Positions 16,404-17,312 of a stretch of DNA of 64,000 nt are shown here, piece by piece; within the stretch, counting starts at the first letter, position 1, and each line of letters opens with the position of its first letter. This DNA comes from Octopus vulgaris (taxonomy: Eukaryota), in the NCBI GenBank assembly GCA_951406725.2, contig OX597826.1, positions 23,808,001-23,872,000 of the forward strand, in the 5' to 3' direction. The translations under genes were made by a program, and so were the position numbers. The notes beneath the pieces were generated by a model. The model saw only the letters and a list, made by a program, of their open reading frames with translations. It was not told the origin of the DNA and ran no database searches.

Positions 16404-17312
16404 ATGTCCAGAGTATGGAGACCTGACGAGCTGGATTTATTCGTACAAGCATGGGGGTGCGCCGGCGGAGATAGCCCTAGCGAGGTGATTGCGGCTGCGC
16501 TGAAGAGCAGAGGCTACAAGAGGACAGCGGCTCAGATGGAGCGAAAGAGACGGGAATTCGTGCGCTCATATGCGCTTGTACGGTCGCACATTGGCGCACT
16601 TGATGCCATCTTTGAGAACGAGCAGGGCAAAGATGACAAGAATGGAGACGATGAAAGAAGTCACCCCCACCTGGTGGATGCCCGGGAGGAGGTTTTGAAT
16701 GAGAAACCTGCCCGGGAAGTGAACCCAGGTGCAAGTTCTCCAACCGGCAGCAAAGGCCATGGAGACGGAGAACCCGGTGAAGAGGTAGAGGGAGGAGGAA
16801 GAACTAAAAGAAGGGCTGGTAGAGCTAAAGGAAAAGCTCAAGCAGGACCAAAGGGTGAAAAAACCAGGAATAGAAGTGGAACCGCAAAAGATGGAAACGG
16901 ACAGCGCACACGGGTGTGTAGGTTCTACCTGAGAGGTTCCTGCTGGCATGGAAAGGAAGGTGCAGGCTGCCGCTTTGCACATCGGGGACCCTGCCACAGA
17001 GACACAAGGCAGATGGACAAACCATCAACACAAGGAAAAGGGATGGACCACGCACCACTTGCCCCAAAGCGGAGGTACGCAGATGTTGTGCGTGCCACAA
17101 ACCACCAACATGATGTTGTCGAAAGGGCAGCTGCTGAGCAACAATCTTTTTTGTGCATGGCACAAAAGATTGTACAGCAGCTGACCTGGCTTCATCAAAC
17201 CCAAGCCCGCAGGTGGGACTACCCACTATATACCAGACCACCACCACAGCAAACACACCCAGGATGGACACCACCGGCAACAACGTACACCTCACCTCGA
17301 TGCTCCTACTGA
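16404..17312 (+). CDS. LINE ORF1 (302 aa): N-terminal Myb/SANT-like trihelix domain, acidic/basic linker, CCCH zinc finger
   Basis: Intact ORF; W..DE..LF..AW...IAAALKSRGYKRTAAQMERK...Y resembles trihelix Myb; CRFYLRGSCWHGKEGAGCRFAH is CCCH-type. Confidence 0.8.
   Translation: MSRVWRPDELDLFVQAWGCAGGDSPSEVIAAALKSRGYKRTAAQMERKRREFVRSYALVRSHIGALDAIFENEQGKDDKNGDDERSHPHLVDAREEVLNEKPAREVNPGASSPTGSKGHGDGEPGEEVEGGGRTKRRAGRAKGKAQAGPKGEKTRNRSGTAKDGNGQRTRVCRFYLRGSCWHGKEGAGCRFAHRGPCHRDTRQMDKPSTQGKGMDHAPLAPKRRYADVVRATNHQHDVVERAAAEQQSFLCMAQKIVQQLTWLHQTQARRWDYPLYTRPPPQQTHPGWTPPATTYTSPRCSY

Follow-up and report, generated by a model that had tools for sequence, protein, structure and literature searches.

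The junction between ORF1 and ORF2 in a LINE of Octopus vulgaris carries a U-rich slippery heptamer in the reading phase of ORF1, and an in-phase heptamer of the form X_XXY_YYZ (Y = A or U) is found there in the column majority of all ten related families which we compared from one genome. Three synonymous U's of the heptamer are retained far above background, and selection evidently acts on these U's. Judging from this pattern we regard the heptamer as probably a low-level -1 frameshift site yielding an ORF1-ORF2 fusion. The element class itself is ordinary; the feature at the junction is real and selected.

The window is the whole stretch of DNA that was analysed (64,000 nucleotides), and all coordinates refer to it. 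The two-ORF LINE occupies about 16340-20062, its ORF1/ORF2 junction being the site of interest, and further copies lie nearby:

16404..17312, + strand: ORF1, 302 aa, start ATG 16404
17128..17183, + strand: 56-nt hairpin around the heptamer, -28.1 kcal/mol
17135..17137, + strand: TGA, last stop of the -1 frame before the heptamer
17138..19965, + strand: ORF2 frame with endonuclease (APE) and reverse transcriptase (RT), -1 relative to ORF1
17147..17153, + strand: U_UUU_UUG, the slippery heptamer, in phase with ORF1; predicted site of the -1 shift
17154..17299, + strand: ORF1/ORF2 overlap, linker of the would-be fusion; -1 frame open in 10/10 families
17264..17266, + strand: in-frame ATG in strong context (AGG ATG G), on Gly-Trp codons of ORF1
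17300..17302, + strand: ATG four codons 5' of the endonuclease Asn
17310..17312, + strand: ORF1 stop TGA, made of the Leu-Asn codons at the endonuclease start
19966..20062, + strand: 3' UTR with interfamily motif and (AATCAA)n tail
9833..11750, + strand: copy 2 (family 2, 84% identical)
20880..22414, + strand: 5'-truncated family 3 copy (76% identical), the lead to full-length relatives
1471-2631 (+), 8101-8895 (-) and 12033-12270 (+): other truncated copies, 94-98% identical, again of this LINE family

A sequence-only reading of the window had placed the TGA at 17135-17137, the heptamer, the ATG at 17300 and the TGA at 17310-17312 correctly. Its statements that ORF2 lies in the -1 frame and opens right after the first of these stops (it is open from 17138), and that U_UUU_UUG stands in the phase of ORF1, read from ATG 16404, were borne out as well. 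The in-frame ATG at 17264-17266 had been overlooked.

ORF1 shows a weak Myb/SANT-like match at its N-terminus and also a CCCH zinc finger, all Pfam matches lying below the curated cut-offs. Its C-terminal part contains a conserved helix motif AAAEQQSFLCMAQKIVQQLTWL, which is retained in distant ORF1 proteins, RPP and a GWxP tail. The frames 3' of ORF1 gave clear APE and RT matches; compared with a natural copy, the ORF2 of this element has lost 284 nt at 18306 and 8 nt at 19389, which breaks it. An ORF2 with APE and RT, a repeat tail and many 5'-truncated copies identify the element as a LINE (APE-type non-LTR retrotransposon). With two ORFs, APE and RT, a length of about 4 kb and a short tandem-repeat tail it is like the CR1 group (Jockey superfamily), a tentative resemblance judged mainly from length and tail. 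Unlike that group, its SANT-like and CCCH ORF1 has no counterpart among the five types of ORF1 in PMC4120745, to judge by a word search for CCCH, Myb and SANT (0 hits). A search of the PDB with the endonuclease gave zero matches, an atlas search with one homologue gave only matches under 0.9, and a word-index search recovered no relatives of ORF1, while a profile search did recover some. Relatives of ORF1 that bear a name are octopus proteins.

In the 3' UTR the motif GGYGGTGCCCCAGCATGGCC (window 19990-20062; loci L248, L274, L250 and L238) is kept in families 1, 2, 3 and 5, with a variant in 4b. The tail repeats differ among families despite this common motif (AATCAA or AATC, TTAAGGAT, AAAAGAGT). 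The motif is likely an RT recognition element.

Some copies are joined to other sequences. The predicted protein P0012, the N-terminus of which is presumably lipin-like, ends in a piece of LINE ORF1, by exonisation or by an error of the gene model. At L247 (about 4150-4350, G000:C15) a family 2 element continues into the apparent 5' end of a cellular mRNA, which we take to encode a ubiquitin-conjugating enzyme; this may be a LINE-mRNA chimera. No splice joint with defined ends that removes ORF1 was found in the contigs, a data type unable to exclude splicing. The element is also covered by sequencing runs that may be RNA, and these were not counted as evidence of expression.

Ten families (1, 1b, 2, 3, 4a, 4b, 5, 6, 7 and 8) were compared. 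The more diverged ones were reached through the third fragment in the window, through loose contig ends from other samples matching the hairpin region only, and through distant ORF1 proteins. Of 253 loci 44 were unanchored; the first seven families account for 179 of the 183 distinct anchored ones, which leaves 4 unclassified. Families 6, 7 and 8 comprise 20, 6 and 16 loci, picked from 60 by island match, and column majorities were taken from at most 25 loci per family. APE identity among the main lineages is 59-77%, and synonymous codons differ at 27-54%. In the tree families 1, 1b and 2 join 3 and 4b, then 6, 5, and 7/8; family 4a, with only 18 usable endonuclease residues, entered neither the tree nor the background described below. 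Family 5 is young (1% divergence), some copies having a long open ORF2, and for one old variant the search found 1 further copy. Differences among the nearest 30 loci of each window copy are mostly private and star-like, so that only comparisons between families count.

In ORF1 the heptamer is read as Ser(TCT)-Phe(TTT)-Leu(TTG). Seven families carry U_UUU_UUG, two (4b and 6) U_UUU_UUA and one (family 5) A_AAU_UUU. Counted by copy, the heptamer is present in 42/49 (family 1), 21/21 (1b), 29/35 (2), 11/15 (3), 9/14 (4a), 7/7 (4b) and 35/38 (5), and U6 plus purine in 5/6 (7), 13/16 (8) and 10/20 (6) copies of the old families. Copy 2 of the window keeps the heptamer (10592-10598), the hairpin (10573-10628, -25.6 kcal/mol) and both open frames, as had been claimed for it, together with GTG 10706-10708 and ATG 10742-10744.

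The residue before Phe varies (Ser, His, Ala, Asn), but its codon ends in U every time; the Phe codon is always UUU and the Leu codon always UUR, a form taken by only 21 of 165 endonuclease Leu codons. As background from the endonuclease, a third-base T common to all six lineages occurred in 4/204 columns, none of which was among the 62 columns with at least three different residues. Invariant pyrimidine two-fold columns were all T in 4/28 cases, and Leu columns all TTR in 0/15. These results are not expressed as a single P value, since the three U positions were picked after inspection and the families share ancestry. In-phase heptamers within the endonuclease were found in 2 columns, each common to at most two families.

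Given the peptide, the chance of the heptamer is 0.015-0.02 in families 1-4. In family 5 the Leu has changed to Val, and a canonical A_AAU_UUU stands one codon upstream instead (chance 0.18 for the residues of this family). In families 6, 7 and 8 a G lies opposite the first U of the Leu codon, and the common synonymous codon CUR would give C-G there, yet the U is kept; this indicates that the letter is conserved and not merely the pairing. The protein motif AAAEQxxFLxxAQxIVxQLxW around the site is conserved in distant ORF1s, and synonymous divergence across its 22 codons is not below background (15 pairwise tests, all P > 0.2). Most DNA conservation at this place is thus protein conservation, and the heptamer survives the correction. 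Its last base is G in the window copy and in 7/10 families, off the eukaryotic -1 frameshift consensus as given in PMC3542737 (Z = A, C or U), to which 4b, 5 and 6 conform.

A run of six T's might also act during transcription, if RNA polymerase slipped on it and added one U, so that a few transcripts held ORF1 and ORF2 in one frame. We regard this as very improbable. In two genomic copies, L135 (G000:C8) and L275 (C2), the run has gained a T, and ORF1 and ORF2 indeed form single frames of 1296 and 1257 aa, which would fit it. These copies look like ordinary homopolymer indels, however, and show nothing about activity: among 142 loci 123 had T6, 12 T5, 6 T7 and 1 T4 (one place being counted twice and three T7 loci having been fetched for their long frames), indel rates are similar at other six-base runs of the elements, and the two family 1b T7 copies have no private change in common. 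In addition, family 5 has just T4. Single frames also arose otherwise, in the family 5 copy L249 (C41; 1327 aa) by a short insertion or deletion close to the Gly-Trp codons and in L137 (C3) by deletion of most of the hairpin region.

Downstream of the heptamer the -1 frame is open for 52-66 codons to the endonuclease in the majorities of 10/10 families, and P0036, a relative from another sample, is open for 48 codons; the +1 frame has stops in 9/10 families. The preceding TGA of the -1 frame stands four codons 5' of the heptamer in 8/10 families. Stops in the ORF2 frame of young copies had been named as the observation that would speak against frameshifting, and they occurred in 2 of 162 indel-free copies of the stretch, the other 160 being open. 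The openness itself, correctly described before, is by itself weak evidence, because given the ORF1 protein it arises by chance with 0.21-0.72 per family (0.6 for the window copy). A 2A-like peptide in the -1 frame (DLASSNPSP) was discarded on inspection as off motif and not conserved.

There is no conserved AUG for ORF2 among the ten families. The codon at 17264 is ATG in 5, GTG in 4 and TTG in 1 of them, and that at 17300 is ATG in 2/10 (families 1 and 2), ATA in 5, and GTG, GTA (family 8) and TTT (family 6) in one each. Simple reinitiation at ATG 17300, which the sequence-only reading had allowed for, is thereby ruled out as a general mechanism. Some in-frame AUG is still present in 8/10 families. 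Families 5 and 8 have none ahead of the conserved endonuclease Asn, in family 8 in the majority and in family 5 in 36/38 copies, one exception being a fused copy. Their first Met after this Asn follows 10 codons (family 5) and 65 codons (family 8) later. A homologous-looking Asn is needed in Zorro3, where PMC1965478 gives less than 5% for N17A. A start at the first AUG would remove this apparently required residue in families 5 and 8, which excludes AUG initiation as the general route. Many of 120 distant ORF2 gene calls, unreliable on short contigs, start inside the endonuclease; the Asn pattern matched only 31 and missed others.

Alternatively, ORF2 could be translated by termination-reinitiation tolerating non-AUG codons, ribosomes stopping inside the first endonuclease strand, moving back four or about sixteen codons and restarting at AUG, AUA, GUG or a similar codon, with the U-run and the hairpin tethering or pausing them. 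We consider this unlikely, although several observations point in its direction. Statements in PMC1965478, PMC5972666 and PMC3542737 have L1 ORF2 tolerating loss of its AUG, also described as dispensable in PMC5009743, and TURBS accepting non-AUG codons. The ORF1 stop keeps its position next to the start of the endonuclease in every family (identical in 9/10, one codon earlier in family 6), but this follows simply from the Leu-Asn codons. Four codons before the Asn there is ATG, ATA or GTG in 8/10 families, against the GTA of family 8 and the TTT of family 6. Family 6 alone (e.g. L259, L341) has a TGATG, in which the ORF1 stop runs into an ATG as in stop-start reinitiation, one codon ahead of the Asn; adjacent or overlapping stop-AUG arrangements comprise this one and an AUG 10 nt before the stop in 2/10 families, with none in 7. 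In 9/10 families the Gly-Trp codons supply ATG or GTG flanked by a purine at -3 and by G at +4; the A of this ATG, however, is a Gly third position varying like a free base (A/G/T), and the remaining letters are set by the ORF1 Trp. UGGGA (TURBS motif 1) occurs at 17214-17218 in families 1 and 2, and by inspection is missing at that place in 3, 4 and 5. Finally, reinitiation leaves unexplained a phase-correct heptamer about 160 nt upstream and its replacement in family 5. Reinitiation of the L1 type, which would depend on termination of ORF1 and not on a particular codon, is not known to leave a mark in the sequence.

The hairpin reported around the heptamer is real. The fold of 17100-17320 has z = -4.6, with 0/200 shuffles equally stable, and among 181 windows of 80 nt along the element the hairpin ranks first (windows of 60 nt cut through it, and a scan at that size did not rank it). 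Relative to synonymous recodings z is -5.4 for the window copy. The only Rfam match, mir-210, reached 24 bits against a threshold of 50 bits and was read as a generic hairpin. The structure is strong in families 1, 1b, 2, 3 and 4a and partial or likely in 8. In 4b, 5, 6 and 7 it is not favoured, the pairing probability being near 0, and the heptamer is nevertheless kept. The slip site indeed lies within the stem, as the earlier caveat had said. A hairpin not favoured in four families, and surrounding the site rather than standing 3' of it, is no general requirement.

It might be, instead, that the U-run belongs to an RNA element with another job, such as binding of ORF1p or a host protein, packaging, stability or a pause, and that ORF2 starts independently at AUG or GUG in the tail of ORF1. 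The stability of the hairpin far exceeds what the encoded protein demands (z -3.3 to -5.4 against synonymous shuffles, families 1-4a), and the synonymous differences that separate family 1 from family 3 leave it intact more often than random changes do (P 0.001-0.017). Families 6, 7 and 8 retain part of its register (13/17 outer pairs, P about 0.02-0.03 each), and in all families the heptamer U's can pair with a purine run. We nevertheless find this reading improbable, because the heptamer is retained where the helix probability is near 0 and the U-G pairs stay as they are even where a change to C-G would leave the protein unaltered. Moreover, the stem shows no clear covariation, proposed earlier as a check: no double-sided changes were found among families 1-5, and adding families 6-8 gave 4 double-sided pairs, not above slid controls, which reach up to 5. 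Compared with shuffles, the double-sided changes stood out for cells (1/500) but not for pairs (95/500). In family 7 (L294, L299) ORF1 shows a Glu/Gln swap at two positions paired in the hairpin (G-C to C-G), which could be RNA or protein compensation.

Among pseudoknot-free folds no stable structure starting 5-9 nt 3' of the heptamer was found, only weak stems of 4-6 bp. The 30 nt downstream fold with -0.4 to -8.5 kcal/mol, and family 4a alone does better there than its synonymous shuffles (P = 0.01; 0.07-0.90 elsewhere). Duplex scans of five elements, 3' tail included, gave no consistent long-range pairing partner just behind the heptamer.

The earlier proposal of a frameshift to an ORF1-ORF2 fusion thus stays the favoured one, suggested by the heptamer in 10/10 families, the switch in family 5 and the families lacking an AUG; a general role for the hairpin did not hold. 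According to this proposal, a minority of ribosomes would slip back one base at the heptamer and produce an ORF1-endonuclease-RT fusion, while the majority finish ORF1. The P-site tRNA-Phe would re-pair on UUU, giving Ser-Phe-Phe/Leu-Val. Slippage can be driven by rare Leu codons even where a stimulator is lacking. At a low slip rate a strong 3' stimulator would presumably be unneeded, and such a rate would fit a low ORF2p:ORF1p ratio. With a ribosome on the heptamer the inner stem would have to be open, and the remaining 3' structure would be weak. In some lineages the hairpin around the site probably modulates slippage as an accessory, much like the anchoring helix of HIV-1, rather than triggering it. 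The fusion would have about 1290 residues and retain the SANT-like and CCCH parts. It would also halve the conserved ORF1 helix, followed by about 50 Thr-rich residues up to the endonuclease, and the cut through this helix counts against frameshifting.

HIV-1 gag-pol offers a comparison. As there, U_UUU_UUA is found (families 4b and 6), a nucleic-acid-binding ORF would be joined to an RT, and the flanks 5' and 3' of the shift site can pair. PMC5009743 describes this pairing as an exception to wholly 3' stimulators, and attributes the Phe in 20-30% of the HIV-1 product to P-site-only slipping. Unlike HIV-1, the octopus element is no retrovirus, lacks a strong stem-loop 5-9 nt downstream, has Z = G in seven families and contains no protease, so that a fusion would apparently stay uncut.

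Among LINEs, TRE5-A and TRE3-A of Dictyostelium also have two ORFs with APE and RT in ORF2, and a review figure legend states that ORF2 requires a -1 frameshift (PMC5911963). In contrast to these L1-clade elements of an amoeba, known here from the review statement only, ours is an animal LINE with another type of ORF1 and a heptamer traced through ten families. It shares a bicistronic LINE RNA with SART1 and mammalian L1. According to reviews, reinitiation has been shown for SART1 and caliciviruses and proposed for L1. SART1 is described with an overlapping UAAUG and L1 with a 63-nt spacer, whereas the octopus element has an overlap of about 160-190 nt and, unlike both, an ORF1 stop inside the endonuclease coding region. 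RTE-2_OV of Octopus vulgaris, also a full-length LINE and possibly active according to PMC9115989, belongs to the RTE clade and has a single ORF, hence no ORF1/ORF2 junction. For HeT-A, a frameshift within gag is mentioned in PMC5009743. The word 'frameshift' is absent from a 2026 CR1 survey (PMC13343379, word search). Titles and abstract openings on non-LTR/CR1 elements, frameshifting and reinitiation, including few subscription papers, mention no animal LINE with a -1 frameshift where ORF1 meets ORF2.

For translation of ORF2 in two-ORF LINEs the literature consulted names reinitiation in SART1 and an unclear AUG-independent route in L1. Tentatively, we suggest that old, still-amplifying animal LINEs may make their RT as a Gag-Pol-like ORF1-ORF2 fusion by means of a U-rich heptamer with no 3' stimulator, a wrapping helix tuning some lineages, and that ORF2s without an AUG may be normal and not decayed. 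The families form a natural panel with three heptamers, with and without hairpin and with and without AUG, several of them young and near-intact. If true, the active enzyme would carry its own ORF1 RNA-binding domains, the annotation of ORF2 starts would change, and a frameshift route in animal LINEs would stand as a third mechanism of ORF2 translation.
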